From assembly GCF_964355755.1 (NCBI RefSeq), contig NC_092679.1:9903432-9967431 (forward strand): 64,000 bases of DNA. The letters run 5' to 3'. The DNA is from Antedon mediterranea. Taxonomy: Eukaryota > Animalia > Echinodermata. Positions within the stretch are counted from its first letter, which is position 1. Each line of letters opens with the position of its first letter. Below, piece by piece: positions 1,835 through 64,000 of this stretch. The translations under genes and the position numbers were made by a program. Below the pieces are notes generated by a model that searched no databases, was not told where the DNA came from, and saw only the letters and a list, made by a program, of their open reading frames with translations.

Positions 1835-3855
1835 TGTTTGTTTCTGTCCACCGAACTCTCCAGTCTCCTTCTGGAATGACTTTAGTAACAATTTTCTTCT
1901 GCCTTTATTACCTCACTTACCAAAGTATGATGATATTTTTATTGTTAACGGTGTGAATGTTTCGTCACACCCTGTAACTGCTAGTTCATTTAATGATTTT
2001 TTTGTTTCTGTTTTTAACCCACCCATAATTTCCAGCTGTGAACCTCCGGTTTGTAATGTCCTAATCCCTGAACTTTCTCAACTTAACTTTAACGTCTACA
2101 ATGTTGAGAAGGTGATTAATGAACTTTCGTCTAATAAATCTCCAGGTCCTGATTCCGTGCATCCATACATATTGAAATCTGCTTCCGAATTTATTGCTCC
2201 AACCATTATTTAATTTGTTTAACTTGTCCCTGCATATGGGGGAAATCCCCGCTAAGTGGAAAATGTCACATATCACTCCTATGTTTAAATCTGTTGATAA
2301 AAATGCAATTTGTAATTACAAACCAATATCCCTTACCCCTATATGTTCGAAACTGCTTGAAAAAATACTGTTTTCAAGTATATCTGATCACGTTGCTTAT
2401 AATTGTCCAATTACTGAAGTCCAGCACGGTTTTTTCCCTCCCGTTCCTATGTTACCCAACTTACCAACCTAACTCATTCCTGGGCATCTTCGCTAGATAA
2501 AACTAAAGCCCCCAGAATTGATGTTATCTTTCTCGACTACGCCAAAGCGTTTGATAAACTGCCTCACCATATTATTTTAAATAAGCTGGCTAGTCTCTTC
2601 AATATCAGAGGCAATGTCTGGAAATGGATCAAGTCATTTCTTTTGTGACGTTCCTAAAGAGTCTTGTATCAAGGATCCATTAGCCCATCATCCCCAGTTA
2701 CCTCTGGCATACCACAGGGCAGCGTACTTGGACCCCTTATTTTTAACTTATTTATAAATGACCTTCCCTCATCTATTATTTCTCCATGTGCATTGTTTGC
2801 CGATGACACGATAATTTATAGAAATATATTTACTGTAGACGATGAAGTTGTTCTTCAGTGCGATCTGATCAGGCTTTACTCTTGGTGTGATCTAAATGAA
2901 ATGGAGCTTAACTTAAATAAAACCAAGGTTCTCCACATTACAAGATCAAGGAAAGAGTATAGATCTGTTTATCGTATAAATGACTTGCCTATTAAATCCG
3001 TATCTAGTCATTGTCATCTGGGGGTCACGATTAATAGTGAACTTACTTGGGATGACCATGTAAACTTAATTATTTCTCGTTCAAATCGAATGTTGGGTTT
3101 TATTACTAGTATTGCAGGAGGATCATCCCCTTCAGCTATTTTCTCACTCTATAAAGCTCTCATTGTCCCCATCCTTGAATATGGTGTCCCAGCGTGGTTG
3201 CCTCGAACCAAAAAACTTACGGAACGTATCGAGACAGTCCAGCGAAGGGCTACTAGGCTTGTCCTTAAACCAACAAGAGGTGAAATGGAATACGAGGAAC
3301 GTCTCACTAAGCTAAATTGGCCTACACTATCTAATCGAAGAAATTATCTTCTGTTATCCTTTATTTGTAAATCACTTATTGGAACGGTTGATTGTAGTAG
3401 TGTTCGTCAATCTATAGTTGTTAATGGCCGTCACCTTGATACACTTCAGTTCATTCATCACTATGCTCGAACCAATTGTCTTCATCATTCCGCTATTAAC
3501 ATATTCCCTAGGTTGTGGGAAGAATTACCGGAAATGATTAAAAATTCTTTAATTTTAGACAGTTTTCCAACATTTTTAAATTCACTTAAATCACATGTTT
3601 TATATTGACTTTGTTGAATCGACTATAATGCATTTTATCCGTTTATTTTATATTGACACTGTTGATTCGTCTATTTGTTATTTAAATATTTTTATATAGT
3701 TTATTATATATCATTGTTGTTACTTTGTGAGTACGGGACCTGAACTCTTGCTATAGTGATTAGGTTCACTTTTAGGTTCCTGCCTACTCCCTTAGTTTCT
3801 GTGTTTTTGTTTGTTTGTATCTGGTTTTTGGCAATAAATAATAATAATAATAATA
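1835..3855 (+). mobile_element. 5'-truncated CR1-type non-LTR retrotransposon
   Basis: RT fragments KSPGPDSVHP, NYKPISLT, PQGSVLGP, LFADD and a CR1-like C-terminus (LEYG..W.P...IETVQRRATR...YEERL). AATAAA then an (AAT)n tail to 3855. Splits the satellite at gattgatc|attcattt with no clear TSD. Confidence 0.88.
1953..3608 (+). pseudogene. Frameshifted reverse transcriptase (ORF2 remnant) of the CR1-type LINE
   Basis: ORF pieces 1953-2213, 2194-2472 and 2664-3608 are consecutive parts of one RT, broken by frameshifts and stops. Confidence 0.85.
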
Positions 3856-44804: not shown

Positions 44805-46683
44805 ATGGCTAATGCAACAATGCAACACATAGAAATGGCTGAAAAACTAATTAAATCTAAGAAAACTAAAAAGAAAAAGGTTTATGCTGTTGCTGTCGGG
44901 AAACAACCAGGTATATATTTATCCTGGCTGGAATGCAAAGCAAACACACATTTTTTAGTGTTGAAAAAGCCGAAAAATATCTCAGCGAAAATGGGGTGTG
45001 CAATGACTTAGAATGTACTGATGCAACTAAAGTCATTGATGCTGAAGAGGAACTACCTTTAGTAAATACAGCTATTGAAAGTAACAAAATAGATACTGAA
45101 TGTAATGATACATATTACATGACCTGGTAACCACTTATGTAAATGACCTCCAAAACCTCCATTCCGCTTGCACTCAATCACATTTTGATCACTCATTAGC
45201 TTCTCCAAATCTATCTGATTTGCTAAAAGAAAACTTCGAACTTAAAATTAAAATGTCTGAAAATGAGAATAGAGTCCTGAAAGATAAATTACTAGGTAAA
45301 AACAATGATTGTGCTATTTTGTTTGAAGCTCTAAAAGATATTCGACGTGAGCTTAAAGAATTTAAAAAAGAGGTTAAATCCCTACAAGAAAATAGAAAAT
45401 TCAAACAGAATGTAAATATTAAATTCGAAGCTCTTAAGTCCGATGTAACACATTTGCAGCATACTTTACAACTGTTGCAGCAAAAAGATAAGGAAGTGAC
45501 AAAACTACACGATCTACTTATCTCAGTTCATAAAGATGCTGCTAAAGCCAAAGATGAAGCATACGATGCGAAAATAACCCAAGTTGCTATTGACACATCT
45601 GACTTTATTACTGTGAAGGGGCATAGTGTTACTCAACATAAAACCTGTCCCCAACTTGGTCTGCACGATAGATGTTCCTCTCCTCAAGAACAGTCTATAC
45701 ATCTGACCTCATTGGACCTCCCGAAACAAAATCGGTCTAATGTAGAACCAAATTGTGACAGCAAAGTTATCGATGATTCTCGGACTTATTCTGAGCAGCT
45801 AATTGACACTCTATATAACGCATTGGATACGACTAGCCCTACTAAAGATGTAACGAAGAGTACTGGAAAAGTTGATTCTTATCAACTACAGCTTCATAAA
45901 TACCGTAATAAACATAAAGCACTAAGCGACACACAACAAATTGCTGATAAAACTGCTAGTACTCAAGATTACACAATTCCAGCTGACGTTCTGATTATTG
46001 GCGATTCAATGATTAAACATCTTCGTCCCAAACGATTAAATAATTCTACTGAAAAAAAAGTGATATGCCACACTATGCGTGGTGCAAAAATAGAAGACCT
46101 CGCGCATTGTGCCAAGCGTCTTGCAGTAAAACATGGTGTTGAAAGAGTGATTGTTCATGTGGGAACTAACAATAGAAATGACAGTTCAGACACTTTGACC
46201 TCAAAAACGACATCTCTGTGTGAAACCTTGAAGCCAATAAAGTGCACAGTTTCCTCCATCATACACCGACGCAATTCAACCAGACAGTCTCGAAATGCGA
46301 TGATGTAGAGAGAGCAAATCACCATATGAAACTCATATGCAAAGAGAATGGCTGGGGATTTACTAATAATACAAATATTCCATTCATGAAACTATCTTCT
46401 GATGGAGTTCATCTTAGCGAAGAACATTATTGATCACATAAGTAGTGAATCGGCGATGAGTCCACCTCCGTCATTTTTTTCTGCTCTCAAATCAGTACCA
46501 ACCAATTCGTCAGAGAGAATGCGTCAATCATCAACAAGGGACTATAAAAATCGATGCAAGAAAAGAAAGAAAAGAGTGGTTCAAGTACCTGGAACTTGTA
46601 CGAGAGCTGCTAAATCCACAAAAACCTACCTACACAAATTAAATTCAATTTTGCAAATTCGTCACTTATATTTTGTTTGCTAA
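44805..46683 (+). pseudogene. L2 ORF1 (frameshifted): RNase H1-type hybrid-binding domain, coiled coil, SGNH esterase
   Basis: VYAVAVGKQPGIYLSWLECKA / FFSVEKAEKYL, a K/E/L-rich coiled-coil-like stretch, and SGNH blocks VLIIGDSMIK, RGAKI, IVHVGTNN, DGVHLS. Spread over several frames. Confidence 0.78.
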
Positions 46684-49521
46684 ATGCTCGTTCATTGCGT
46701 AACAAAAGTGATGAATTCACAGACTTTGTTGTTAGTAATGACATTGATATCGTGTCTGTGTCTGAAACATGGCTTCAACCTGATGACAACCTCTCCATTA
46801 GAAACATAACTCCACTTGGATATTGTTTCAAACATGTTCCTAGATTGGATAAAATCGGTGGAGGGATTGGAATTTTATATAAATCTAGTATAAGTGTTAA
46901 TATGAAAAATGATGTAAATGTTTATTCTTCATTTGAAACAATACATTAACAGTTTACATTAAGTTCAAAAACAATTTATATTGTATGCATCTACAGACCA
47001 CCGAGTTTGTCTGTCACCGACTTTCTTAATGAATTTGAAAATATGATTTTTGATTATCTCATTATTCCATCAGAAGTAATTTTTTGTGGTGATTTTAATA
47101 TCCACATTGATGAAAATGAGAATATCGCTGCAAATAAATGTAATCGTCTATTGCAGTCTTTCAATCTTATACAGCATGTAAATGAACCTACGCATGATGG
47201 TGGTCATTGTCTTGATCTCATTATTACTAGAGATGTTTCTCTGATCTCGGGGATCACTGTAAAACCGGGTATCTCTGATCATTTTTCTATACTTTGTAGT
47301 CTCGACTTCAAGAAACCACCTCTACCTAAATCTAAAATTAAAATCCGCAAATATAAACAGTATTGATACAACAATATTTTCATATGACATACAAGCTCGG
47401 TTGTCTGATATGCATGATGGTACTTTGCAAGAAAATATTGAAAGATACTGCTCTTTAAGAGAAGTTATGGATAAACACGCACCTTTAAAAACAAAATGTA
47501 TCAAACTAAATTCTTCAAAACCGTGGTATACTGATGAAATTAGATCTGCGAGAAAACTCCGTCGCGTATTTGAGAGAAAATGGATGAAATCAAAAAATAC
47601 ATTAGATAGACAGAAATATTGTCATCAGCGGTGTATTGTTAATATGCTTGTTGAAAGTGCTAAGAAACAATATTATTCTGATCTGGTCGAAGATTGCTCA
47701 GGTGATCAGAAGAAGCTGTTTAAAGTTGTAAATAATCTTTTACACTGTTCTAAATCGTCGGTGCTTCCATTTTCTCACTCAGATGAGTTGCTTGCAGAAA
47801 GATTTTCCATATTTAAAAAAAATAAAATTGTTAATATTCGTAAACTTTTTGTTAAAGATAGTGCTGGAAGTTTGTCTCATTACTTTAATAACGACGTATG
47901 CTGTGAAAATTATAATTGTCCCTCCCTTTGTATATTTGAACCTGCAAGTGAAAAAGAAATTTCTGAAATTGTCAAAAACTCGCCTGCTAAATTTTGCAGT
48001 CTTGATCCAGTTCCTATTCTGTTAATTAAGAGAAATGCTGTTGTTTTTGTTCCACTAATTACACGTGTCGTTAATCTGTCTTTGGAAACTGGGGTTTTCC
48101 CAGATATTTGTAAAATCTCACACATACGTCCTCAATTAAAGAAATCGGGTCTTGCTCCTGAAAAGCTATCCAATTACAGACCAGTATCAAATCTGTGTTT
48201 TCTTGGAAAAGTAATTGAAAAAGTGGTATCTAAACGTATACTATCACATGTAAAGGATAATTCTTTACTTGACCCGTTTCAATCAGCGTATAAAGCACAT
48301 CACAGTACTGAAACTGCACTCCTGCGCGTTAGCAATGATATACTTCGTGCGATGGATGTTGAAAAAGTAACTGCTTTAATTTTACTTGATTTGAGTGCTG
48401 CGTTTGATACGGTAGATCATAGTATTCTGACTGAGAGGTTGCATGCTTCTATTGGTGTTCAAGGATGTACACTAAGATGGTGTCAATCATACTTGGAGGA
48501 CAGACCTCAACACATTTGTATTAGAGAGGAAATCTCTCAACCTACCACTTTAAATTACTCTGTTCCGCAAGGATCTGTGTTAGGTCCACAATTGTTTACA
48601 ATTTATGTATATCCTATTCGTGATATCATTAAGAAATATAATCTTAGTTATCATGTTTACGCTGATGACACTCAGATATATATATCGTTTAAACCTACCA
48701 TGACAAAGAGTGAATTATCAATTGATTTGCTTGAAAAATGTATCTCTGAAATTCGTGTCTGGATGGCCAAAAACTTTTTGAAACTTAATGATGATAAGAC
48801 TGAGTGCATCCTATTTGGTTCGCAACAACAATTAGAGAAAATTCCATCTAAGAGGGTTTCCATTGGTAACTTTTGTACTAAAAATACTACACAAGTTACA
48901 AATCTTGGTGTAATTCTGGATTCTAATATGACAATGACGGCTCATAATTTCTAAAATTACGTCTGCATCGTCATATCATTTAAGAAATATTCAAGGCATC
49001 AGAAAATACTTAAATTGTGCAGCTGCTGAGCAACTTGTACATGCATTTGTTAGTTCGCGTCTCGATATGTGTAACTCCTTGTTATTTGGTCTCCCACAAA
49101 AACAACTCCACAGGCTTCAGCTGATTCAAAATACAGCGGCACGAGTTGTTAAAAACTACCAAGATATGCACACATATCAAATACCTTGGAAACTTTGCAT
49201 TGGCTTCCTGTTAGGTACCGCATTGTTTTTAAATTATTACTCTATGTTTTTAAGTCTATTAATGGCATGGCTCCTGAATATATTTCTGACATGCTTAGGC
49301 TGTATGTTCCCAGACGGAATCTGCGTTCTAGTGATACGCTGCTTCTACATCAACCTAAGTCTCACCACTCATGGGGAGACAGAGCTTTCACCGTTACTGC
49401 TTCTCGTCTATGGAATGCAATACCAAGCTCTATCAGATTTTGCAAAACTTTTGATACTTTTAAAAAATTATTAAAAACACATTTATTCATTAAGGCATAT
49501 GGAAATCATGAGGTTTCTTAA
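46677..49521 (+). pseudogene. L2 ORF2 (APE endonuclease + reverse transcriptase), with stops and frameshifts
   Basis: APE: LNARSL, SETWL, GGGIGIL, GDFNIH, HCLDLI, SDHF. RT: NYRPVSNL, LDLSAAFDTVDH, PQGSVLGP, YADDTQIY. Confidence 0.92.
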
Positions 49522-49816
49522 AGTTCTAGAATTTTATAGTATACTTTTTCCTGACCAGCATTATCTTATCTTGGTTGTTGTCTCTGAGCACCCGGTCGTC
49601 TGTGGCAAGGCAAATGTGTATCCTGTTCCTTTGTTTGGTCATCTAGGTAGGGGTCCGAGACCGCGACAGAACGAGAACGGATGGGGACCCTCCAAAGAAA
49701 TTGCATTTTATTTGTCAGGCATTTGTATGATTCGTTTTAAATTTTTTTTTGAATGCGCCTTGAGCACTCTTGAGTGGTATGTGCGCTATAAAAACCCTGT
49801 TATTATTGTTATTATT

Positions 49817-50108
49817 ATAGATCAGCGAGAGAGAAATAGATCAGCGAGAGAGATAGATCAGCGAGAGAGAGATAGATCAGCGAGAGAGAGAGAGAGAGAG
49901 AGATCAGCGAGAGAGATAGATCAGCGAGAGAGAGATAGATCAGTGAGAGAGAGATAGATCAGCGAGAGAGAGATAGATCAGCGAGAGAGATAGATCAGCG
50001 AGAGAGAGATAGATTAGCGAGAGAGAGATAGATCAGCGAGAGAGAGATAGATCAGCGAGAGAGAGATAGATCAGCGAGAGAGAGAGAGATCAGCGAGAGA
50101 GAGATAGA

Positions 50109-50155
<47 letters not shown>

Positions 50156-53037
50156 AGCGAGAGAGAGAGAGATAGATCAGCGAGAGAGAGAGAGATAGAT
50201 CAGCGAGAGAGAGATAGATCAGCGAGAGAGAGATAGATAGATCAGCGAGAGAGAGATAGATAGATCAGCGAGAGATAGATAGATCAGTGAGAGAGAGATA
50301 GATCAGCGAGAGAGAGATAGATAGATCAGCGAGAGAGAGATAGGTCAGCGAGAGAGAGATAGATCAGCGAGAGAGATAGATAGATCAGCGAGAGAGAGAT
50401 AGATCAGCGAGAGAGAGAGAGAGAGAGAGAGATAGATCAGCGAGAGAGAGAGAGATAGATGAGCGAGAGAGAGATAGATAGATCAGCGAGAGAGAGATAG
50501 ATCAGCGAGAGAGATAGATCAGCGAGAGAGAGATAGATAGATAGATGAGCGAGAGAGAGATAGATGAGCGAGAGAGAGATAGATCAGCAAGAGAGAGAGA
50601 TAGATAAGCGAGAGAGAGATAGATCAGCGAGAGAGAGATAGATAGATAGATCAGCGAGAGAGAGATAGATAGATCAGCTAGAGAGAGATAGATCAGCGAG
50701 AGAGAGATAGATAGATCAGCGAGAGAGAGAGAGATAGATCAGCGAGAGAGAGATAGATCAGCGAGAGAGATAGATAGATCAGCGAGAGAGAGAGATAGAT
50801 CAGCGAGAGAGAGATAGATGAGCGAGAGAGAGATAGATCAGCGAGAGGGAGAGATAGATCAGCGAGAGAGAGATAGATCAGCGAGAGAGATAGATCAGCG
50901 AGAGAGAGATAGATCAGCGAGAGAGAGATAGATCAGCGAGAGAGAGATAGATCAGCTAGAGAGAGAGATAGATCAGCGAGATAGAGAAAGATCAGCGAGA
51001 GAGAGATAGATCAGCGACAGAGAGATAGAACAGCGAGAGAGAGATAGATCAGCGAGAGAGATATAGATCAGCGAGAGAGAGATAGATCAGCGAGAGATAG
51101 ATAGATCAGCGAGAGAGAGAGAGATAGATCAGCAAGAGAGAGATAGATCAGCAAGAGAGAGATAGATCAGCGAGAGAGAGAGATAGATCAGCGAGAGCGA
51201 GATAGATTAGCGAGAGAGAGATAGATAAGCGAGAGAGAGATAGATCAGCGAGAGAGAGAGAGATAGATCAGCGAGAAAAAGATAGATCAGCGAGAGAGAT
51301 AGATAGATCAGCGAGAGAGAGAGAGAGATAGATCAGCGAGAGAGAGAGATAGATCAGCGAGAGAGAGATAGATGAGCGAGAGAGAGATAGATCAGCGAGA
51401 GGGAAAGATAGATCAGCGAGAGAGAGATAGATCAGCGAGAGAGATAGATCAGCGAGAGAGAGATAGATCAGCGATAGAGAGATAGATCAGCGAGAGAGAG
51501 ATAGATCAGCGAGAGAGAGAGAGAGATAGATCAGCGAGAGAGAGTGAGAGAGATAGATCAGCGAGAGAGAGATAGATCAGCGAGAGAGAGATAGATAGAT
51601 CAGCGAGAGAGAGATAGATAGATCAGCATGAGATAGATAGATCAGCGAGAGAGAGATAGATCAGCGAGAGAGAGAGATAGATAGATCAGCGAGAGAGAGA
51701 TAGGTCAGCGAGAGAGAGATAGATCAGCGAGAGAGATAGATAGATCATCGAGAGAGAGATAGATCAGCGAGAGAGAGAGAGAGAGAGAGATAGATCAGCG
51801 AGAGAGAGAGAGAGAGAGAGATAGATCAGCGAGAGAGAGAGATAGATCAGCGAGAGAGAGATAGATCAGCGAGAGAGATAGATAGATCAGCGAGGGAGAG
51901 ATAGATCAGCGACAGAGAGATAGATCAGCGAGAGAGAAAAAGATCAGCGAGAGAGAGATAGATCAGCGACAGAGAGATAGATCAGCGAGAGAGAGATAGA
52001 TCAGCGAGAGGGAGAGATAGATCAGCGAGAGAGAGATAGATCAGCGAGAGAGAGATAGATCAGCGAGAGAGAGATAGATCAGCGAGAGAGAGATAGATCA
52101 GCGAGAGAGAGAGAGATAGATCAGCGAGAGAGAGAGAGATAGATCAGCGAGAGAGAGAAAGATCAGCGAGAGAGAGATAGGTCAGCGACAGAGAGATAGA
52201 TCAGCGAGAGAGAGATAGATCAGCGAGAGAGATATAGATCAGCGAGAGAGAGATAGATCAGCGAGAGAGAGATAGATCAGCGAGAGAGAGAAATAGATCA
52301 GCGAGAGAGAGAAAGATCAGCGAGAGAGAGATAGATCAGTGAGAGAGAGATAGATCAGCGAGAGAGAGATAGATTAGCGAGAGAGAGATAGATCAGCGAG
52401 AGAGAGAGAGATAGATCAGAGAGAGAGATAGATCAGCGAGAGAGAGATAGATCAGCGAGAGAGAGATAGATTAGCAAGAGAGAGATAGATCAGCGAGAGA
52501 GAGATAGATCAGCGAGAGAGAGAGAGATCAGCGAGAGAGAGATAGATCAGCGAGAGAGAGATAGATCAGCGAGAAAGAGATAGATCAGCGAGAGAGAGAT
52601 AGATAGATCAGCGAGAGAGATAGATCAGCGAAAGAGAGATAGATAGATCAGCGAGAGAGAGATAGATCAGCGAGAGAGATAGATCAGCGGGAGAGAGATA
52701 GAGAGATAGATGAGCGAGAGAGAGATAGATGAGCGAGAGAGAGATAGATCAGCGAGAGAGAGATATATAAGCGATAGAGAGATAGATCAGCGAGAGAGAG
52801 ATAGATAGATAGATCAGCGAGAGAGAGATAGATAGATCAGCTAGAGAGAGATAGATCAGCGAGAGAGAGATAGATAGATCAGCGAGAGAGAGATAGATCA
52901 GCGAGAGAGAGAGATAGATCAGCGAGAGAGAGATAGATCAGCGAGAGAGAAAATGATCAGCAAGAGAGAGATAGATCAGCGACAGAGAGATAGATCAGCG
53001 AGAGAGAGATAGATCAGCGAGAGAGATATAGATCAGC
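49817..53037 (+). repeat. TAGATCAGC(GA)n minisatellite
   Basis: Same unit, plus orientation. Confidence 0.97.
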
Positions 53038-53187
53038 GATCTATCTCTCTCTCGCCGATCTCTCTCTCTCTCCCCCGCTGATCTATCTCTCTCGCTGATC
53101 TCTCTCTCTCTCTCTCTCTCTCGCTGATCTATCTCTCTCTCGCTGATCTATCTCTCTCGCTGATCTATCTCTCTCTCGCTGATCTAT
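53038..53187 (-). repeat. Inverted ~150-bp stretch of the minisatellite
   Basis: Strand switches to (TC)nGCTGATCTA at ~53038 and runs up to the tail of the inverted L2. Confidence 0.92.
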
Positions 53188-53835
53188 AATAATAATAATA
53201 ACAGGGTTTTTATAGCGCACATACCACTCAAGAGTGCTCAAGGCGCATTAAAAAAAAAAAAATTTAAACAAATCATACAAATGCCTGACAAATAAAATGC
53301 AATTTCTTTGGAGGGTCCCCATCCGTTCTCGTTCTGTCGCGGTCCCGGACCCCTACCTAGATGACCAAACAAAGGAACAGGATACACATTTGCCTTGCCA
53401 CAGACGACCGGGTGCTCAGAGACAACAACCAAGATAAGATAATGCTGGTCAGGAAAAAGTATACTATAAAATTCTAGAACTTTAAGAAACCTCATGATTT
53501 CCATATGCCTTAATGAATAAATGTGTTTTTAATAATTTTTTAAAAGTATCAAAAGTTTTGCAAAATCTGATAGAGCTTGGTATTGCATTCCATAGACGAG
53601 GAGCAGTAACGGTGAAAGCTCTGTCTCCCCATGAGTGGTGAGACTTAGGTTGATGTAGAAGCAGCGTATCACTAGAACTCAGATTCCGTCTGGGAACATA
53701 CAGCCTAAGCATGTCAGAAATATATTCAGGAGCCATGCCATTAATAGACTTAAAAACATAGAGTAATAATTTAAAAACAATGCGGTACCTAACAGGAAGC
53801 CAATGCAAAGTTTCCAAGGTATTTGATATGTGTGC

Positions 53836-53872
53836 CACGGCAGTTTCAAACGCGATATCCGAGACACAAAGT
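53836..53872 (+). promoter_or_regulatory. 5' end: RSS-like heptamer - 21-bp spacer - nonamer
   Basis: CACGGCA gtttcaaacgcgatatccgag ACACAAAGT gttt. Confidence 0.7.
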
Positions 53873-54496
53873 GTTTACAACGCGCTTTTGATTGATACGC
53901 CTGGCGCGTGCCTTGAGCAGCTATTTATAGCCCACCAACATCGAGCGAAATGTTTACATTCGCTAGCTATAAACAGAGAGTGTATCATACGAAGTAAATA
54001 CAGTCTTACAATGACCAATTAATAAAGTTTTCCTCGAATCTTACAGTGTTTGCTTTGTTATTGTATTTTGTATTAGGGAAAATTGTCTAGGATTAAAAAA
54101 TATTATTAAAAAAGCGAAATTTTAACGATGTTTGCGATAGTTTCAAAAGCTGAAAATTTACATAAATAGCGCCCTCACGGCGAAAGTTTATCGTCGCGGT
54201 AAGTTCAAGCTTTTGATCGTCTGATAGCAAATCTCTGCAATTTTTTCGAGCAACACCGTTAATTCCAAGTGAAAGCGGAGACTTTATTCTTTATTTAGCT
54301 CAAAATTCAGGCTGACGTCTACTTTCAAATTGATTTGAGCTAAATTTGAAATTGACTTATTTCTGTTCAAAATTCCAGTGATTTTATAGGTAAAAATAGG
54401 CCTAGGGCAAAGTTAATTATATATTTTTTAAAGAATTGTGTATTGGTTTTGCATTGACTGTATGTGGTATGTTACTGTTATTTATTGTCTTGTGAA

Positions 54497-57400
54497 ATGG
54501 AGTACCATACATATGCATTGAGTAATTTATGTCGTGTATGTGGTGTCAAGTTAACACGAAATCAGCGAAAATTTGACCTAACTAAAGTAAAAGATAGCGT
54601 CCTGACATTTTTAAATATCAATTTAACTCATGAAAACAAAGATGTACATCCACCATTCATTTGCAAGAACTGTCAATTTTCAAGCTATAACAAGGTTAGC
54701 ACAACTCAAAGGTACATCTGGAGACAACACACACAACAATCATGTTTCACATGTTATTTATTATCAGAACAGTCAAAACCAGGTAAGAGACTAAAACAAG
54801 TAAAACTCAACACATTATTTTCTGAAACAGAATGTGACGTTATTCCATCAAAATTTACAGTCAATGACAAAATCAATTCTGAACCTTTCATTTGCCAAAT
54901 ATGCAACTCGATTTTGTCTTTCAACAGTCTTGAGTCAAACTGTTCACATCACTATTGTTCTAGTTGTATGTATAATTTGTTTAGTACCCTCCATGTTAAC
55001 GTATGTTCATGTCTTGTGTGCGCAAAGCCAATGCACATGCTGGAATTTAAACCCGCCTCCCAAATTGTAATAGAGTCTCTAAAATCACTAGAATTACAAT
55101 GCTCGTGCAATAAGTTCATAAAATACTCTCAACATCAGAGACATATTTGTGAACACCAGACAACTAAAGAAGTGATTTATCATAATGTTTCAAAAGCTGT
55201 ATCAATGTTAGAGAAATCACTAGAAGATAGTCATGTCTCCCAAACAATACAAACGTTTGCAGAAAAAGTTGTTTACAATCAACTAAAGAAAAGTAAGGAA
55301 ATGCTGATTGCAACAAATGGTCGGGTGAGTGCTTTAAAACAAATTCTGTAATTATCATATTGCATGTTATAAAAAGTAGATTAATATTATTATAACAGAA
55401 TTGTTAGCATAAAACATACAAATACAATTCTTATCTACAGCCAGCAAAGATTGCTATGATACCAAACACCAAAGTCTCAAGCGATAAGGCCAGTTCTCGA
55501 ACTGTTTCAAGACGAGCAAATAGCATCAGCAGCATCATAAAATCAGTTGGCAATAGTGAGGCTGGTGATTTCCATCAAAAAGTGTACTCAGCCAAACATA
55601 TGAGTCAAGCGGTCTTAAAAACAGCCAACATAGCATCAACTTCGTCTATAGATACAGATAAGGCTCTGGCAATGGTGTCAGACTGCCATCTGGCATGGAA
55701 CCAGCTACGAAAGCTAAGAAGGTAAACAAACAATTATGTGATTAAATAAAACCATGCATGAATACAGGCATTTTAGACACAGTCAAGTATGTCTAATAAT
55801 AAAGCGAGACTACATTATTAATCATTTTTTATGTACTAGATATGTGGAGAAGGGGACAATACCATCAGAGAAAAGGATGCGGCAGCGGCAAAATGATCTC
55901 ATTGGGGATTATTTTGAATCCACAATGGAAATGCTATGTTTTAGGTCTGAGACGTCCCCAGACGGGATAGAATTAAGATCAACGCCTACTGTCAAACTGA
56001 AAAACATTAAAAAAGTTGTATTTTCATATCTTGATGAACACTCAAGGTACGCTGAAGTTAAATTTAAATATGTGCTTACAAAGTGTAGAACTTACTTTTT
56101 AGGACTTTACTTTTGTTCCTATGGATTTTGCTATGGAAATAAAAGTTAAAAGAAATTAATTAAAAACTGAATTAATATTTACTAAATTTTTTACAGACTG
56201 AACAACCTATCTCCCAATAATAACGAGATTTGGATAAAGTTTGGCGGGGATAAGGGAGGTGGAAGTACCAAATATGAGGTACAGATATGTAGCCTCGCCA
56301 AACCAAATTCAATTAACAACATCATCGTCGTACTAATATTTGATGCCCCTGACATGATGTTTAATATTAACCGGACTCTTCCGGAAGTGGCCCACCAAGT
56401 TGTTGCTTTGAACGGGGAAAAATGGCGGTAAGAATACAACTAGTATATCAACTTAACAATTATGTGGATGCGTATATAAGTAATAAAATAAAAATATATG
56501 TATAATTTCTTTCAGCAATTACACACTGAGAGTTTTCTGTTTTGGGGACTATGAATATCTAACAAAACTCTATGGATTAAATGGACCAAATGGTAAACTA
56601 TTAAATTATTTTATCATCATTTAATTTATACAAAATCTTTCTAAGCCAATTTTATTTATACTGTATTACTGCATATTTTAGCATTTTTAAACATTGTGAA
56701 AAAATTTGAATACTTTTAGCTCGATACTGCTGTCTCTTTTGTGAAAAACCAAAAGCAGAAATGCAATTAAAGGCACCACCCGCCAAACAGCGATCATTGG
56801 CTTCAATCAGAGCCAACTATAGAATGTTTATGGAAGATGGCGGAATTGAAAGCCGATCTAAGGATGTTTCCATGAGCGTTGTTAATAATCCCTTAGTATC
56901 AATTGAGGTAGATCATGTAAGTACATCAGTTTTGTTTTTAATTATCTTTATATTAGAGAAACAAATGTACTTACTTCATTATATGGCACTGTTGGTATTA
57001 AAATTTATATCTTTTAGGTGTCTGTTCCTAGCCTGCACTTGTCATTGGGCATATTCAAGAAGCTCTTTGATATGCTTGAGACGGAGGCGCACAGCATAGA
57101 TTGCCTCATATATTCCCTAAGGAAAAATGGAGAACTTGATGACACTTCTGAATCAAAGTTTGATAAAATAATTCAACATCAGATCCAAACACAAATTGAT
57201 ATCAAAGAAAAGATTGAAGAAAAGAAATTAAAGTTGACTGAGATGGAGGATGCAATGCCATTAATCTATCTTAAAGGAAGTGTTGATGGTAGCATCATTA
57301 CCAATGTGGGAAAGATAGTCAAATTGAGAGAAGAGATTGAGTCACTGGTAAGTTACTCAAACAATAAATGACATGTATGTGTCTGGCAAGACGCATCTAC

Positions 57401-58396
57401 ACACACACATACTCTAAAGACAAAACTTGTATTATATTTTATTTTACAGACAAAATGCATGGAAAATGGGCTTCCATTTGGAACGGGTCCAATTGTCACA
57501 TCACTGGAGCGTGTGCTACAAAAAAATCGCATCCAACGGCAAGCCTATCATGGTAAATCATTTATTGGTAACCATGTTCATAAATGTTGTCAGGTAAATT
57601 AACTATTCTTTTAATTGATATTGTTTCAACTGTTAATTATTAAAATTGTAGTTTTTAAAATGTATATTTGTTTTTAATAGGACCACGTTAGGAATGAACT
57701 AGTGAATGCTCCACTACATGAAATGAAAATTCAAGAAGCTGAGATTCCTATCGGAAAAATTCAGCTAATTGACAAAAGAGTAAAAGAATTAGTCACCAAG
57801 TACGATGCACTCCTTTCAAAATTTTCTAGGGTTCACAACAACTTGAATAATTCAAAACCTGTCACAGATGTTGATATTCAAAGAAATGGTAATGTAATTA
57901 TGCTTACCTTTCAAGGTATTCCTTAGACATGCCATTGTTTCTTTTCCTACAACACACTGCAACTGTTTCTTTTCTCTTCTACAAAAAAAAATTCAGATGA
58001 AGCCATAAAAGACTTTATGGAGGAATATCGAAAAACCAACAAAAGTATATCTCCAAAATTACATATGCTCGAGGAACATGTCATTCCCCAATTAAAGGCT
58101 TGGAGATTTGGTCTGGGACTGGTTAGCGAGCAAGGTGGGGAGTCTATTCACGCCGCGCTTAATAAAAGGAAAAGAACAGTTGCTGGGATGCATGACAGAC
58201 TTGGACAGTTAACATCCATGATGCGGTCACATGCAATTACCACTCAGCCATGCATAATAGAAGAAATAGTTGAACCCAAAAGAAGAAAAATTGGTAACAA
58301 TTTACACTTTATTGATTACACTATTTGTGCTTTTTAGCTCCCTGCTCACCAAAAATTAAATAAACCTGTTTATATTTTTCAGAAAAAGAAGAATAA
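54497..58396 (+). CDS. RAG1-like / Chapaev-type DDE transposase with N-terminal Zn domain and RING finger, 11 exons, ~937 aa, no stops in the spliced model
   Basis: Hand-built GT-AG model with compatible phases: 54497-55324, 55441-55721, 55840-56046, 56197-56427, 56516-56592, 56720-56916, 57018-57347, 57450-57593, 57681-57888, 57997-58293, 58383-58396 (last exon uncertain; the alternative stop is at 58337). Motifs: LCRVCG..HPPFICKNC..WRQH..CFTC; RING CQIC..CSHHYCSSC..CLVC; NGRP; GGDKGGG (D1); FGDYEYL (D2); CCLFC; LHLSLG; RQAYHGKSFIGNH; PKLHMLEEH; SEQGGESIH (E). Confidence 0.88.
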
Positions 58397-59542
58397 AGTA
58401 CACGACAATGAATACGAAATAAAAGAAAATATAGGCTTACTGATAAATCTGACGGAGTGCCATCTTCTTCTTTATTATGGATTCTCTTATGAACCACACT
58501 TGCATCAATAAAGTAGTCGTACTTGTTTGTGTTGGTGGTATTTTTGGAACCTGTAGTACAATTTTTGAATTATAAATATTTATCATCATTATTTTAAAAA
58601 AATGGTGGACTAGCGATTGAAATACATGATGAAATATTATATTATTATTAGGACTATACTGTCAAAATTAAAATCAAAATTTTATTTTTTATTCTACAAA
58701 TGCAATGCTGTTGCTGCCATAGTTTAGTAATATTCAAGCCATAGGAAGATAGACTATGATATTTTCACATTTTCTACTGTAGAATAACTTAGGCCCTCAT
58801 GAAAGCTAGTTAGTAAGTATACCTATCCTCCTAGGCCTACCTATGTCTTGATGGTACCATATTAAAAAATTAGGCCTAGCCTAGCTAGATAGAGCTGTTA
58901 CTAAGCCTGGCCCTGCTGATTTCCCCTCTTAACGACATATACTTGGGCTAGGCCTACTAAGAGTATATTATTCTAGGCCTAGGCCTATACAGTATTTATT
59001 TTTCGTGGCTTAAACCTAGTACTTGGTGACAAACCTTTGTTAGGCCTAGGCCTTTAGCAGCACACCCACGTGTGCAAAACAGGCAAATGGGCCCCGACTT
59101 TCTGTGTATATAATTATTAAACTGGATTAGACGTCAGCGAGATTTTTTAAATATTGTTTATCAAGTTTTTGAATTTTCACATCGACTAGGCGCCGATGTT
59201 TATGTAAATTGCAAAAAAAATATATAACCTCACCATTACCCTGTAATTAAACTGCTATTTTTTACTGTTTTTTGTCGCAAAATAGACGTAAGATTTCAAT
59301 ACTCATATCTGGTGAAGTCTTGAGAAACGGAGTGACCGCTGGCTTCGAATATCAATTACATGCCTTCTTCTTCGAATATAACATGAATATTCATTAAATT
59401 TTCAATTATAACACTGTCTATTGGTCAGTTTATTCCCTCTCTTTTACCAGGGTATTAAAAATAGTCTTCCGGGTATTTAAACTAGCGCCCTCTATAACAT
59501 AAAATAAGAAAAAGCGAGCATCGAAACTATAGAGGGCTCACC

Positions 59543-59570
59543 ACTTTTTGTCTCGCTGGAAACTGCCGTG
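59543..59570 (-). promoter_or_regulatory. 3' end: RSS-like heptamer - 12-bp spacer - nonamer
   Basis: Reverse complement CACGGCA gtttccagcgag ACAAAAAGT ggtgagccctcta. Confidence 0.75.
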
Positions 59571-60449
59571 GTGCATATCTTGGTAGTTTTTAACAACTCG
59601 TGCCGCTGTATTTTGAATCAGCTGAAGCCTGTGGAGTTGTTTTTGTGGGAGACCAAATAACAAGGAGTTACACATATCGAGACGCGAACTAACAAATGCA
59701 TGTACAAGTTGCTCAGCAGCTGCACGATTTAAGTATTTTCTGATGCCTTGAATATTTCTTAAATGATATGACGATGCAGACGTAATTTTAGAAATTATGA
59801 GCCGTCATTGTCATATTAGAATCCAGAATTACACCAAGATTTGTAACTTGTGTAGTATTTTTAGTACAAAAGTTACCAATGGAAACCCTCTTAGATGGAA
59901 TTTTCTCTAATTGTTTTTGCGAACCAAATAGAATGCACTCAGTCTTATCATCATCATTAAGTTTCAAAAAGTTTTTGGCCATCCAGACACGAATTTCAGA
60001 GATACATTTTTCAAGCAAATCAATTGATAATTCACCCTTTGTCATGGTAGGTTTAAACGATATATATATCTGAGTGTCATCAGCGTAAACATGATAACTA
60101 AGATTATATTTCTTAATGATATCACGAATAGGATACACATAAATTGTAAACAATTGTGGACCTAACACAGATCCTTGCGGAACAGAGTAATTTAAAGTGG
60201 TAGGTTGAGAGATTTCCTCTCTAATACAAATGTGTTGAGGTCTGTCCTCCAAGTATGATTGACACCATCTTAGTGCACATCCCTGAACACCAATAGAAGC
60301 ATGCAACCTCTCAGTCAGAATACTATGATCTACTGTATCAAACGCAGCACTCAAATCCAGTAAAATTAAAGCAGTTACTTTTTCAACATCCATCGCACGA
60401 AGTATATCATTGCTAACGCGCAGGAGTGCAGTTTCAGTACTGTGATGTG

Positions 60450-63400
60450 ATTGAGAGAGAGAGATAGATCAGCGAGAGCGAGATAGATTAGCGAGAGAGA
60501 GATAGATCAGCGAGAGAGAGATAGATCAGCGAGAGAGAGATAGATCAGCGAGAAAGAGATAGATCAGCGAGAGAGATAGATAGATCAGCGAGAGAGAGAG
60601 AGAGAGATAGATCAGCGAGAGAGAGAGAGATAGATCAGCGAGAGAGAGAGATATAGATCAGCGAGAGAGAGATAGATCAGCGAGAGGGAAAGATAGATCA
60701 GCGAGAGAGAGATAGATCAGCGAGAGAGAGAGAGAGATCATCGAGAGAGAGAGATAGATCAGCGAGAGAGAGATAGATCAGCGAGAGAGAGAGAGATAGA
60801 TCAGCGAGAGAGAGATAGATCAGCGAGAGAGGAAAAGTTCAGCGAGAAAGATATAGATCAGCGACAGAGAGATAGCTCAGCGAGAGAGAGATAAATCAGC
60901 GAGAGAGATATAGATCAGCGAGAGAGATAGATCAGCGAGAGAGAGATAGATCAGCGAGAGAGAGAAAGATCAGCGAGAGAGAGATAGATCAGCGAGAGAG
61001 AGATAGATCAGCGCGAGAGATAGATCAGCGAGAGAGAGAGAGATAGATCAGCGAGAGAGAGATAGATCAGCGAGAGAGAGAGAGAGAGAGATAGATCAGC
61101 GAGAGAGAGACAGATAGATCAGCGAGAGAGAGTGAGAGAGATAGATCAGCGAGAGAGAGAGATAGATCAGCGAGAGAGAGGGATAGATCAGCGAGAGAGA
61201 GATAGATCAGCGAGAGAGAAAAAGATCAGCGAGAGAGAGATAGATCAGCGAGAGAGAGATAGATCAGCGACAGAGAGATAGATCAGCGAGAGAGATATAG
61301 ATCAGCGAGAGAGATAGATCAGCGAGAGAGAGATAGATCAGCGAGAGAGAGAAAGATCAGCGAGAGAGAGAGATAGATCAGCGAGAGAGAAATAGATCAG
61401 CGAGAGAGATAGATCAGCGAGAGAGAGAGATAGATCAGCGAGAGAGATAGATCAGCGAGAGAGAGAGATGGATCAGCGAGAGAGAGAGATAGATCAGCGA
61501 GATAGAGAAAGATCTGCGAGAGAGAGATAGATCAGCGAGAGAGAGATAGATCAGCGAGAGAGATATAGATCAGCAAGAGAGAGATAGATCAGCGAGAGAG
61601 AGATAGATCAGCGAGAGAGAGAGAGAGATCAGCGAGAGAGAGATAGATCAGCGAGAGAGAGATAGATCAGCTAGAGAGAGAGATAGATCAGCGAGATAGA
61701 GAAAGATCAGCGAGAGAGAGATAGATCAGCGACAGAGAGATAGATCAGCGAGAGAGCGATAGATCAGCGAGAGAGATATAGATCAGCGAGAGAGAGATAG
61801 ATCAGCGAGAGATAGATAGATCAGCGAGAGAGAGAGAGAGATAGATCAGCAAGAGAGAGATAGATCAGCAAGAGAGAGATAGATCAGCGAGAGAGAGAGA
61901 TAGATCAGCGAGAGCGAGATAGATTAGCGAGAGAGAGATAGATCAGCGAGAGAGCGATAGATCAGCGAGAGAGAGAGATAGATCAGCGAGAAAGAGATAG
62001 ATCAGCGAGAAAGATAGATAGATCAGAGAGAGAGAGAGATAGATCAGCGAGAGAGAGAGAGAGAGATAGATCAGCGAGAGAGAGATAGATCAGCGAGAGA
62101 GAGAAAGATCAGCGAGAGAGAGAGATAGATCAGCGAGAGAGAAATAGATCAGCGAGAGAGATAGATCAGCGAGAGAGAGATAGATCAGCGAGAGAGAGAT
62201 AGATCAGCGAGAGAGAGAGATGGATCAGCGAGAGAGAGAGATAGATCAGCGAGATAGAGAAAGATCTGCGAGAGAGAGATAGATCAGCGAGATAGAGATA
62301 GTTCAGCGAGAGAGAGATAGATCAGCAAGAGAGAGATAGATCAGCGAGAGAGAGATAGATCAGCGAGAGAGAGAGAGAGAGATCAGCGAGAGAGAGATAG
62401 ATCAGCGAGAGAGAGATAGATCAGCTAGAGAAAGAGATAGATCAGCGAGATAGAGAAAGATCAGCGAGAGAGAGATAGATCAGCGACAGAGAGATAGATC
62501 AGTGAGAGAGAGATAGATCAGCGAGAGAGATATAGATCAGCGAGAGAGAGATAGATCAGCGAGAGATAGATAGATCAGCGAGAGAGAGAGAGATAGATCA
62601 GCAAGAGAGAGATAGATCAGCAAGAGAGAGATAGATCAGCGAGAGAGAGAGATAGATCAGCGAGAGCCAGATAGATTAGCGAGAGAGAGATAGATCAGCG
62701 AGAGAGAGAGATAGATCAGCGAGAAAGTGATAGATCAGCGAGAGAGATAGATAGATCAGCGAGAGAGAGAGATAGATCAGCGAGAGAGAGAGAGATAGAT
62801 CAGCGAGAGAGAGAGATATAGATCAGCGAGAGAGAGATAGATCAGTAAGAGGGAGAGATAGATCAGCGAGAGAGAGATAGATCAGCGAGAGAGAGAGAGA
62901 GATCAGCGAGAGAGAGAGATAGATAGGCGAGAGAGAGATAGATCAGCGAGAGAGAGAGATAGATCAGCGAAAGAGAGATAGATCAGCGAGAGAGAAAAAT
63001 ATCAGCGAGAGAGAGATAGATCAGCGACAGAGAGATAGATCAGTGAGAGAGAGATAGATCAGCGAGAGAGATATAGATCAGCAAGAGAGATAGATCAGCG
63101 AGAGAGAGATAGATCAGCGAGAGAGAGAAAGATCAGCGAGAGTGAGATAGATCAGCGAGAGAGAGATAGATCAGCGAGAGAGATAGATCAGCGAGAGAAA
63201 GAGATAGATCAGCGAGAGAGAGAGATAGACCAGCGAGAGAGATAGATCAGCGAGAGAGAGATAGATAAGCAAGAGAGAGATAGATTAGCGAGAGAGAGAT
63301 AGATCAGCGAGAGAGAGATAGATCAGCGAGAGAGAGAGAGGTCAGCGAGAGAGAGATAGATCAGCGAGAGAGAGAGAGAGATAGATCAGCGAGAAAGAGA

Positions 63401-64000
63401 GAGACAGATAGATCAGCGAGAGAGAGTGAGAGAGATAGATCAGCGAGAGAGAGAGAGAGAGATATAGATCAGCGAGAAAGAGAGATAGATCAGCGAGAGA
63501 GAGATTGATCAGCGAGAGAGAAAAAGATCAGCGAGAGAGAGATAGATCAGCGACAGAGAGATAGATCAGCGAGAGAGAGATAGATCAGCGAGAGAGATAT
63601 AGATCAGCGAGAGAGATAGATCAGCAAGAGAGAGATAGATCAGCGAAAGAGAGAAAGATCAGCGAGAGGGAGATAGATCAGCGAGAGAGAGATAGATCAG
63701 CGAGAGAGATAGATCAGCGAGAGAGAGAGATAGATCAGCGAGAGAGAGAGAGATAGATCAGCGAGAGAGATAGATCAGCGAGAGAGAGATAGATAAGCGA
63801 GAGAGAGATAGATTAGCGAGAGAGAGATAGATCAGCGAGAGAGAGATAGATCAGCAAGAGAGAGATAGATCAGCGAGAGAGAGATAGATCAGCGAGAGAG
63901 AGAGAGAGATCAGCGAGAGAGAGATAGATCAGCGAGAGAGAGATAGATCAGCTAGAGAGAGAGATAGATCAGCGAGATAGAGAAAGATCAGCGAGAGAGA
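60450..64000 (+). repeat. TAGATCAGC(GA)n minisatellite (continues beyond the window)
   Basis: Same unit, plus orientation. Confidence 0.97.

Follow-up and report, generated by a model that had tools for sequence, protein, structure and literature searches.

Chapaev transposons that combine a Chapa domain with a RING were reportedly described by Kapitonov and Jurka in 2007 in Repbase Reports, and N-RAG-TP of Aplysia is said by Panchin and Moroz (2008) to be a transposon protein with a region like the N terminus of RAG1. Chapaev hallmarks are given as a 3- to 4-bp target duplication and invariable CAC/GTG termini (PMC4079192). For two Chapaev subgroups, Kapitonov and Koonin (2015, PMC4411706) describe a Chapa domain followed by a RING, "similar to RAG1", and a core only distantly related to Transib, and they place the Chapa-RING combination in no other transposable elements. 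A 2026 preprint (10.64898/2026.01.24.700457) shows that the Chapa domain resembles the N-terminal zinc domain (NZD) of RAG1. Here, we analyze a 64,000-nucleotide stretch of the genome of the crinoid Antedon mediterranea (NCBI RefSeq assembly GCF_964355755.1, contig NC_092679.1, positions 9,903,432 to 9,967,431 of the forward strand), referred to below as the window, in whose own coordinates all positions are given. Positions 53836 to 59570 very probably constitute a complete autonomous cut-and-paste transposon of the Chapaev group (CMC) that belongs to the Chapa-plus-RING subgroup and is likely still mobile.

The element has the CAC...GTG inverted termini, the 4-bp duplication, the N-terminal Chapa zinc domain, and the DDE core with conserved blocks by which Chapaev elements are recognized. 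With the Chapa-RING elements it has in common the CAC/GTG termini, a duplication in the range of 3 to 4 bp, Chapa, RING, and a DDE core distantly related to Transib and RAG1, while it differs from known Chapaev elements in its crinoid host, its 10 introns, and an exon 1 that reaches no more than 40% identity with the cluster representatives found. RAG1 (mouse, zebrafish) and the amphioxus BbRAGL show the same succession of NZD, RING, and zinc finger; they would also have in common the predicted core fold, from the first helix of the dimerization and DNA-binding domain (DDBD) to the end of the core (Z of 19 to 25), and, in matching places, a CxxC that follows the second D and an HxxxxH that precedes the E. 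Unlike these proteins, the window's transposase has a core whose sequence has diverged beyond the reach of the RAG1 Pfam model, and it contains a long coiled-coil insertion; its element has no RAG2-like partner and a 4-bp duplication. HzTransib (PDB 6pqn/6pqx) shares ends beginning with CAC and, judging from models, the predicted core fold (Z of 14.3 to 22.8), whereas Transib elements, in the descriptions we drew on, are without the Chapa, RING, and zinc-finger region and make 5-bp duplications; the window element has all three and duplicates 4 bp. The domain architecture has been in print since 2015, and the window copy is a well-preserved further example of it.

The element measures 5,735 bp, and the transposase is its sole gene: no other frame longer than 82 amino acids (aa) was found between 53836 and 59570, so the element contains no RAG2-like gene. 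Its ends and non-coding parts are as follows.

53832..53835, no strand: left target-site duplication GTGC, directly before the CAC terminus
53836..53855, + strand: left terminal inverted repeat CACGGCAGTTTCAAACGCGA, first 12 nt perfect, 17/20 match to the right end
53860..53873, + strand: left subterminal 14-nt motif CGAGACACAAAGTG, positions 25 to 38 from the left end
53836..54496, + strand: 5' non-coding part, 661 bp, 34.5% G+C
58397..59570, + strand: 3' non-coding part, 1,174 bp, AATAAA at 58418 and 58507, no frame longer than 82 aa on either strand
59542..59555, - strand: right subterminal 14-nt motif CGAGACAAAAAGTG, positions 16 to 29 from the right end
59551..59570, - strand: right terminal inverted repeat, reverse complement CACGGCAGTTTCCAGCGAGA, with the CAC/GTG terminus
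59571..59574, no strand: right target-site duplication GTGC, directly outside the terminus
48293..49960, - strand: paralogous empty site in an inverted copy of the interrupted retrotransposon fragment, flanks joined over a single GTGC at 49168 to 49171

The terminal 12-mer CACGGCAGTTTC occurs in the window only at 53836 (+) and 59570 (-), against 0.03 occurrences expected; it is the sole inverted match between the flanks and extends to 17 of 20 positions. An initial search for inverted ends with seeds of 8 to 9 nt was swamped by satellite repeats, its sole 13-nt match proving to be the real terminus. The exact boundaries of the insertion are given by the paralogous empty site, which we used after in silico joining of the flanks into a continuous retrotransposon frame had given no clear result because the retrotransposon is frameshifted. 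The left flank (53038 to 53835) is 97.3% identical to 49960 to 49168 and the right flank (59571 to 60452) is 98.5% identical to 49171 to 48293, and since a single GTGC stands between both flanks at the empty site, 53836 to 59570 is an insertion with a 4-bp target duplication. The insertion postdates the 1.5 to 2.7% divergence of the two host retrotransposon copies.

The two ends also share a 14-nt motif, CGAGACA[C/A]AAAGTG (CGAGACAMAAAGTG), which has two perfect matches in the window, both subterminal and in inverted orientation. MAFFT alignment of the ends places a 9-nt gap in the right end between the terminal 12-mer and this motif, which therefore lies 9 nt nearer the tip than on the left. 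Read as 7-mer, spacer, and A-rich 9-mer, the two ends differ in spacer length, with 12 nt before ACAAAAAGT on the right and 21 nt before ACACAAAGT on the left. The recombination signal sequences (RSS) cut by RAG have the consensus CACAGTG and ACAAAAACC with spacers of 12 and 23; the likening of the element's ends to RSS was made after the fact. Ten metagenome loci encoding relatives (1.2 to 5.9 kb, 21 to 50% identical) were available for comparison, and no flanking CAC/GTG inverted repeats were found in the three longest of them, so that the 12/21 spacing is that of this one element.

Separately, 12 occurrences of the palindrome TAGGCCTA were counted in the window, and 7 of them lie inside the element (one at 54397 and six clustered at 58832 to 59041).

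The transposase gene was modeled by enumerating GT donors and AG acceptors up to 4 nt from boundaries set by eye. This enumeration yields a 937-codon open frame on the + strand, from the ATG at 54497 to a stop codon ending at 58396, divided into 11 exons by 10 introns of 86 to 150 nt, all GT-AG, and thereby confirms the intact spliced frame of about 937 aa that had been read from the letters at the outset. Exon boundaries were compared with RefSeq and with read contigs of four runs, X1 to X4. The exons are as follows.

54497-55324, + strand: exon 1 (aa 1-276), Chapa/NZD-like zinc domain, RING, zinc finger, G275 and R276 of the GRP motif
55441-55721, + strand: exon 2 (aa 277-370), P277 of the GRP motif, SRTVSRR, EAGDF, helix LAMVSDCHLAWNQLRKLRR at 352-370
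55840-56046, + strand: exon 3 (aa 370-438), with M383 at 55877, the start of the RefSeq model of a near-identical copy
56197-56427, + strand: exon 4 (aa 439-515), GGDKGGG, putative catalytic D457 (56249-56251), Pfam DUF1280
56516-56592, + strand: exon 5 (aa 516-541), GDYE, second putative catalytic residue D527 (56547-56549), family-invariant
56720-56916, + strand: exon 6 (aa 542-607), CxxC pair C546/C549, family-invariant
57018-57347, + strand: exon 7 (aa 608-717), LHLSLG and the long coiled-coil insertion
57450-57593, + strand: exon 8 (aa 718-765), QRQAYHG...GNHVH block
57681-57888, + strand: exon 9 (aa 766-834), from the gene model and X1 contig joints
57997-58293, + strand: exon 10 (aa 835-933), H857/H862 (HxxxxH), putative catalytic E883 in EQGGESIH, KRRK at 929-932
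58383-58396, + strand: exon 11 and stop codon, from the gene model and the RefSeq match

Residues 383 to 937 match the Antedon mediterranea RefSeq protein XP_071945125.1 (555 aa, "uncharacterized protein") without gaps and at 551 of 555 positions, so introns 3 to 10 are common to that independent gene model. GT..AG joints appear in contigs of run X1 at 6 of the 10 introns (3, 5, 6, 8, 9, and 10), and none appears at the gene's introns in contigs of the DNA runs X2 to X4, which come from a second sample. Of the junctions for which the original prediction had called for RNA reads, six are joined in X1, which is only presumed to be RNA, and introns 1 and 2 are not among them. These two introns are placed by canonical splice sites, by frame continuity, and by an unbroken family-profile match over both junctions (residues 248 to 385, E = 2e-24). 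For intron 1, a second pairing shifted by 4 nt (55328/55445) also preserves the frame; we prefer 55324/55441 because the crinoid relative P0044 shows ...TNGRPLK... uninterrupted. The annotation of the near-identical copy, which begins at M383 and leaves out the Chapa, RING, and GRP part, is probably truncated. Contigs bearing the amino acid differences of that RefSeq-annotated copy (P0001/P0002) show no stop or indel in exons 1 and 2 (window 54497 to 55876).

All the motifs on which the first reading had relied are present in the protein in the order given there. The Chapa/NZD-like zinc domain has as ligands C12, C15, H51, C56, C59, H78, C83, and C86; the C3HC4 RING is complete (C133, C136, C149, H151, C154, C157, C172, and C175) and is followed by a zinc finger with C202, C204, and H216. 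Beyond these lie TNGRP (273 to 277), SRTVSRR (295 to 301), EAGDF (316 to 320), LAMVSDCHLAWNQLRKLRR (352 to 370), GGDKGGG (455 to 461), GDYE (526 to 529), CCLFC (545 to 549), LHLSLG (613 to 618), LHMLEEH (856 to 862), and EQGGESIH (879 to 886). Among the window exons, Pfam finds DUF1280 in exon 4 (E = 3e-13); exon 1 alone has only weak RING and RAG1_imp_bd matches (zf-C3HC4, E = 0.013, below its cut-off; RAG1_imp_bd, PF12560, E = 0.14).

A scan of 1.84 billion cluster representatives returned 205 proteins that match exon 1 at E ≤ 1e-3. All are at most 40% identical and most are single-exon fragments, the long ones combining RAG1_imp_bd, RING, and DUF1280. A profile search added 18 more relatives, ten of them 950 to 1,106 aa long, and among relatives with a name, the nearest are those of the crinoid Anneissia japonica and of the sponges Oscarella and Sycon. 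In an alignment of 18 relatives (A3), DUF1280 is found in 17, RAG1_imp_bd (PF12560) in 13, and the RING model in 13, and the RAG1 core model PF12940 matches none of the 18 at E ≤ 10 and none of 10 window exon translations at E ≤ 1. Our inference is that DUF1280 corresponds to CMC-type cores. The description of the core motifs as Chapaev-like rather than RAG1-like agrees well with this distribution of DUF1280 and PF12940. D457, D527, C546, and C549 are invariant or nearly so in the family, and the E-G-ES-H block occurs in all 11 rows that reach it. Two further searches were unproductive: exon 1 had no match among the longer proteins of a word-indexed collection, and exon 2 was poorly recognized in the ESM Atlas, where the nearest named clusters were hypothetical proteins (one with DUF1280 in 11% of its members) and none was RAG1. 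Most relatives have an AT-hook-like G-R-P-(K/A)-K-K directly after the Chapa domain (alignment A3, columns ~165 to 180), a stretch that is degenerate in the window protein (PGKRLKQVK, residues ~103 to 115).

The kinship of this protein with RAG1 is clearest at the N terminus. Among PDB chains, exon 1 finds its best match in the RING-zinc finger part of RAG1 (E = 8e-4), and a profile of exon 1 and 39 relatives (A5) matches mouse RAG1 100 to 389 in one stretch (E = 3.4e-36), as well as the nuclear magnetic resonance chain 21wb_A of the NZD (E = 1.3e-16) and the RING dimerization domain 1rmd (E = 1e-16). The full-length family profile A3 matches the same RAG1 region at 9e-29. By profile comparison, then, the N-terminal 230 residues are shown to be homologous to the NZD-RING-zinc finger region of RAG1, which bears out the by-eye correspondence of the N-terminal zinc domain, the RING, and the next zinc finger. 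The A3 profile gives a second, non-significant stretch, in which the HxxxxH of the family falls on RAG1 H937/H942 and the E of its G-x-E-S on E962 (counted from the alignment). These RAG1 residues are presumably zinc ligands and a catalytic glutamate, respectively.

For the core, the comparison is one of predicted structures of relatives. The AlphaFold2 model of relative P0085 has a mean predicted local distance difference test score (pLDDT) of 73.7, with the core at ~85 to 95. In Foldseek, the rows down to rank 43, among those listed, are all RAG1 chains (E = 1e-13 to 1.6e-10); amphioxus RAG1-like comes next (1.9e-10), and then HzTransib (1.5e-6). VIA-align superposes the P0085 model on RAG1 with a Z of 25.0 and a root mean square deviation of 3.4 Å over 459 residues (model 473 to 1084 to RAG1 459 to 1005); amphioxus RAG1-like and HzTransib reach 22.8 each, and the next transposase, the P element, reaches 11.4. 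P0001, which is 99.3% identical to window residues 383 to 937, was modeled with a pLDDT of 76.6 and compared with 48,161 chains without a pre-filter. RAG1 (19.9, 394 residues), amphioxus RAG1-like (19.0), HzTransib (14.3), and the P element (11.1) lead this list, and the remaining chains, with a Z of at most 9.3, are all helical hairpins. Identity to RAG1 in the structural alignments is 14 to 16%.

From ~residue 350 to the C terminus, the core is therefore predicted to adopt the RAG1/Transib fold, comprising, in the models, dimerization and DNA-binding helices, an RNase H-like domain, the CxxC/HxxxxH zinc site, and a C-terminal domain. The alignment of the P0085 model begins at the ALAIKSDL helix, which is paired with RAG1 459, in line with the proposed correspondence of this helix to the DDBD. 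The models thus support, as predictions, both a colinear arrangement with RAG1 that begins at the first DDBD helix and extends to the end of the core and a RAG1-like core as a whole (Z of 25.0 and 19.9 for models of relatives). The transposase is a relative of RAG1 and not a member of the RAG1 family, because PF12940 is unmatched, a RAG2-like gene is lacking, and the duplication is of 4 bp.

It had further been proposed that the GRP segment corresponds to the nonamer-binding domain (NBD) of RAG1, and the evidence here is divided. Residues 248 to 385 form a conserved family module (E = 2e-24) in which G275 is nearly invariant in the 40 A5 sequences. In profile-profile comparison with P0114, a RAG1-like N-terminal fragment weakly matching PF12940 positions 8 to 131, the family gives a single alignment (E = 5e-21) that leads from the Chapa domain across the GG/basic segment as far as the LA[IM] helix, although the passage through the GRP segment could be carried by the strong N-terminal part. 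When the module alone is aligned with P0114 293 to 460 by hhalign, it scores 23.4, a value that none of 200 shuffles reaches (11.5 ± 2.2, maximum 19.6); this alignment covers the second half only, up to and including the LA[IM] helix, and leaves the GRP part unaligned. GRP and the LA[IM] helix are spaced 77 residues apart in the window, ~80 in P0085, and ~86 in P0114. A hidden Markov model of the post-RING module had no match in P0114, and the HMMER register sets the GGRPR...TRRAQKHRL of zebrafish RAG1, with low posterior, on a family segment before the family's GRP. In the P0085 model, the GRP segment is of low confidence (pLDDT of 46 to 74) with three predicted helices, and the structural aligners left the RAG1 NBD unaligned to model residues 400 to 472, from which nothing can be inferred either way. 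A RAG1-type NBD is present in only 1 of 169 proteins collected, hence no RAG1-side profile could be built. What stood of the claim is the conserved module, whose second half scores against a RAG1-like fragment; what did not is the GRP part itself, which stays unaligned alone and has a rival register.

The GRP segment may plausibly be equivalent to the NBD. We consider it doubtful that the post-RING module (GRP, basic stretch, and three predicted helices) is a true NBD homologue that reads the A-rich 14-nt subterminal motif, which is separated from the terminal 7-mer by 12 nt at the right end and by 21 nt at the left end. If it were, asymmetric heptamer-spacer-nonamer ends and their reader would predate the split of Chapaev from Transib/RAG, and the root of the 12/23 rule would be much older than RAG. 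No literature report of a Chapaev NBD was found among titles and part of the texts; the supplements of PMC4411706 and bioRxiv preprints may show post-RING alignments.

These results suggest how the element may move. A dimer of the transposase would recognize both the CAC 12-mer at the tip and the subterminal 14-nt motif, the conserved G-R-P and basic segment (273 to 350) perhaps contributing to end binding. D457, D527, and E883 would then nick the DNA and release the element, probably through hairpin formation on the flanking DNA, as RAG and Transib do, with integration following at a 4-bp stagger. C546, C549, H857, and H862 may form a zinc site, and the RING might ubiquitylate or otherwise have a regulatory role.

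The read contigs bear on whether this copy stands alone and whether its gene has been maintained. Contigs of all four runs break exactly at 53836 and 59570, and three different foreign flanks are seen past 59570 (X1, X3, and X4) and one before 53836 (X3). Identical ends next to several flanks indicate that the element is present at several sites and is multi-copy. Relative to the window, the X2 version has 15 coding substitutions (6 synonymous and 9 non-synonymous) and the X1 version has 20 (10 and 10), neither with a stop, and the five indels within the gene in these versions are all intronic. Over 588 synonymous and 2,223 non-synonymous sites, these counts correspond to a pN/pS of 0.40 for X2 (p = 0.07) and 0.26 for X1 (p = 0.004); the transposase gene is kept under constraint. 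The suggestion of a young, possibly active enzyme agrees with a target duplication free of mismatches, an empty site, the additional flanks, copies that are ~1% apart, and pN/pS of 0.26 to 0.40. A low-depth X2 contig (35.5 versus ~230 over the element) runs directly from one flank to the other (53829/59571), with no element between them, and may represent either an empty allele at this very site or a different copy of the retrotransposon.

Constraint on a many-intron gene with spliced sense contigs, a near-identical copy of which NCBI annotates as an ordinary protein-coding gene, would also be expected of a host gene domesticated from a Chapaev transposase, selected for a cellular role, and now immobile. 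We regard this as very unlikely here, as pN/pS below 1 is accompanied by inverted ends that are intact, a 4-bp duplication without mismatch, and an unoccupied site in a 97 to 98.5% identical paralogue; moreover, the ends adjoin at least three other flanks in read contigs, and the copy is embedded in a fragment of a retrotransposon with satellite arrays on either side. A different objection would be that the copy is recently dead, its frame open merely for lack of time, in a family that is inactive or silenced. Abundant spliced antisense RNA over the element (depth ~98 versus ~12 for sense in X1, depth being a poor means of ranking) would suit such silencing, but three independent versions (window, X2, and X1) keep the frame with a synonymous excess and with indels only in introns, and recent death therefore seems unlikely to us.

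It is harder still to credit that the element encodes a true RAG1-like transposase of the RAG-like/Transib-SU lineage, one that would belong to the RAG1 family in the strict sense. The N-terminal match to RAG1 (E = 3.4e-36), RAG1 as the best structural match of the core, and ends that begin with CAC all point toward RAG1, yet PF12940 is absent from all 18 relatives and from every window exon at E ≤ 1, with DUF1280 matching instead; the duplication is of 4 bp and not 5 bp, a second gene is lacking, and structural alignments leave 14 to 16% identity. An autonomous, probably mobile Chapaev transposon is the reading that we retain.

Several points nevertheless weigh against that reading. Mobility is read from sequence, and the inverted ends are short and alike at only 17 of 20 positions. 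The Chapaev assignment was made by hallmarks and architecture, and the putative catalytic and zinc residues were assigned from family invariance, a non-significant hidden Markov model stretch, and RAG1 numbering. Run X1 is taken as RNA by guess. Introns 1 and 2 are without transcript support, the X1 contig over exons 1 and 2 being unspliced (this contig probably belongs to the antisense RNA), and the RefSeq model of the near-identical copy lacks the N-terminal 382 residues.

Chapa-RING Chapaev elements are the only transposons known to carry the non-core N-terminal region of RAG1. With exact ends, a verified insertion site, a frame kept in three versions, and signs of splicing, the window copy is a concrete candidate for an activity assay, which could show whether NZD/Chapa and RING regulate transposition, whether GRP binds the subterminal motif, and what role the unequal spacing of the ends plays. 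Should none of these hold, it would be one more young DNA transposon in a crinoid genome. A literature search by title found no report on the Chapaev core fold by AlphaFold, nor on this Antedon mediterranea element.

Run X1 also contains a spliced antisense RNA of 2,573 nt that covers the whole element (53836 to 59570) on the minus strand, with five GT-AG introns seen as five CT..AC joints. Its exons are as follows.

59234-59570, - strand: antisense exon
58441-58550, - strand: antisense exon
57908-57978, - strand: antisense exon
56975-57116, - strand: antisense exon
56096-56130, - strand: antisense exon
53836-55713, - strand: antisense exon

The longest frame in this RNA has 64 codons. Its contigs have a depth of ~98, compared with ~12 at the sense joints of X1, but depth of this kind is a poor guide to abundance and is not a copy number. 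Since the antisense contig at 59232 to 59570 continues into a flank unlike the window's, the RNA is read in from outside another copy.

As for the genomic surroundings, the gene lies within a 7.3-kb block of unique sequence flanked on each side by an array of a 19-nt satellite, and the immediate flanks of the element are a reverse-transcriptase-bearing fragment of a non-LTR (long terminal repeat) retrotransposon. Two copies of this retrotransposon are present, at 45109 to 49960 (+) and at 53038 to 53835 with 59571 to 60452 (-) (RVT_1, E = 1.6e-34 and 4.3e-23). They are 97 to 98.5% identical over their common 3' part, and the second is the one that the Chapaev element entered. Their frames are fragmented (399, 563, 178, and 160 aa at 45109 to 49957; 226 aa at 59788 to 60468), in keeping with the initial remark that the neighboring retroelements are broken: the reverse transcriptase frames nearby are all in pieces. 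A further reverse transcriptase fragment lies at 2658 to 3608 (+) (RVT_1, E = 2.2e-13). The satellite GAGAGAGAGATAGATCAGC forms arrays at 50000 to 53039 and 60455 to 64000 and recurs at 53037 to 53187 in the opposite orientation. These arrays adjoin the 3' ends of the two retrotransposon copies, which face each other, and they may be expanded 3' tails of that retrotransposon or its preferred target.

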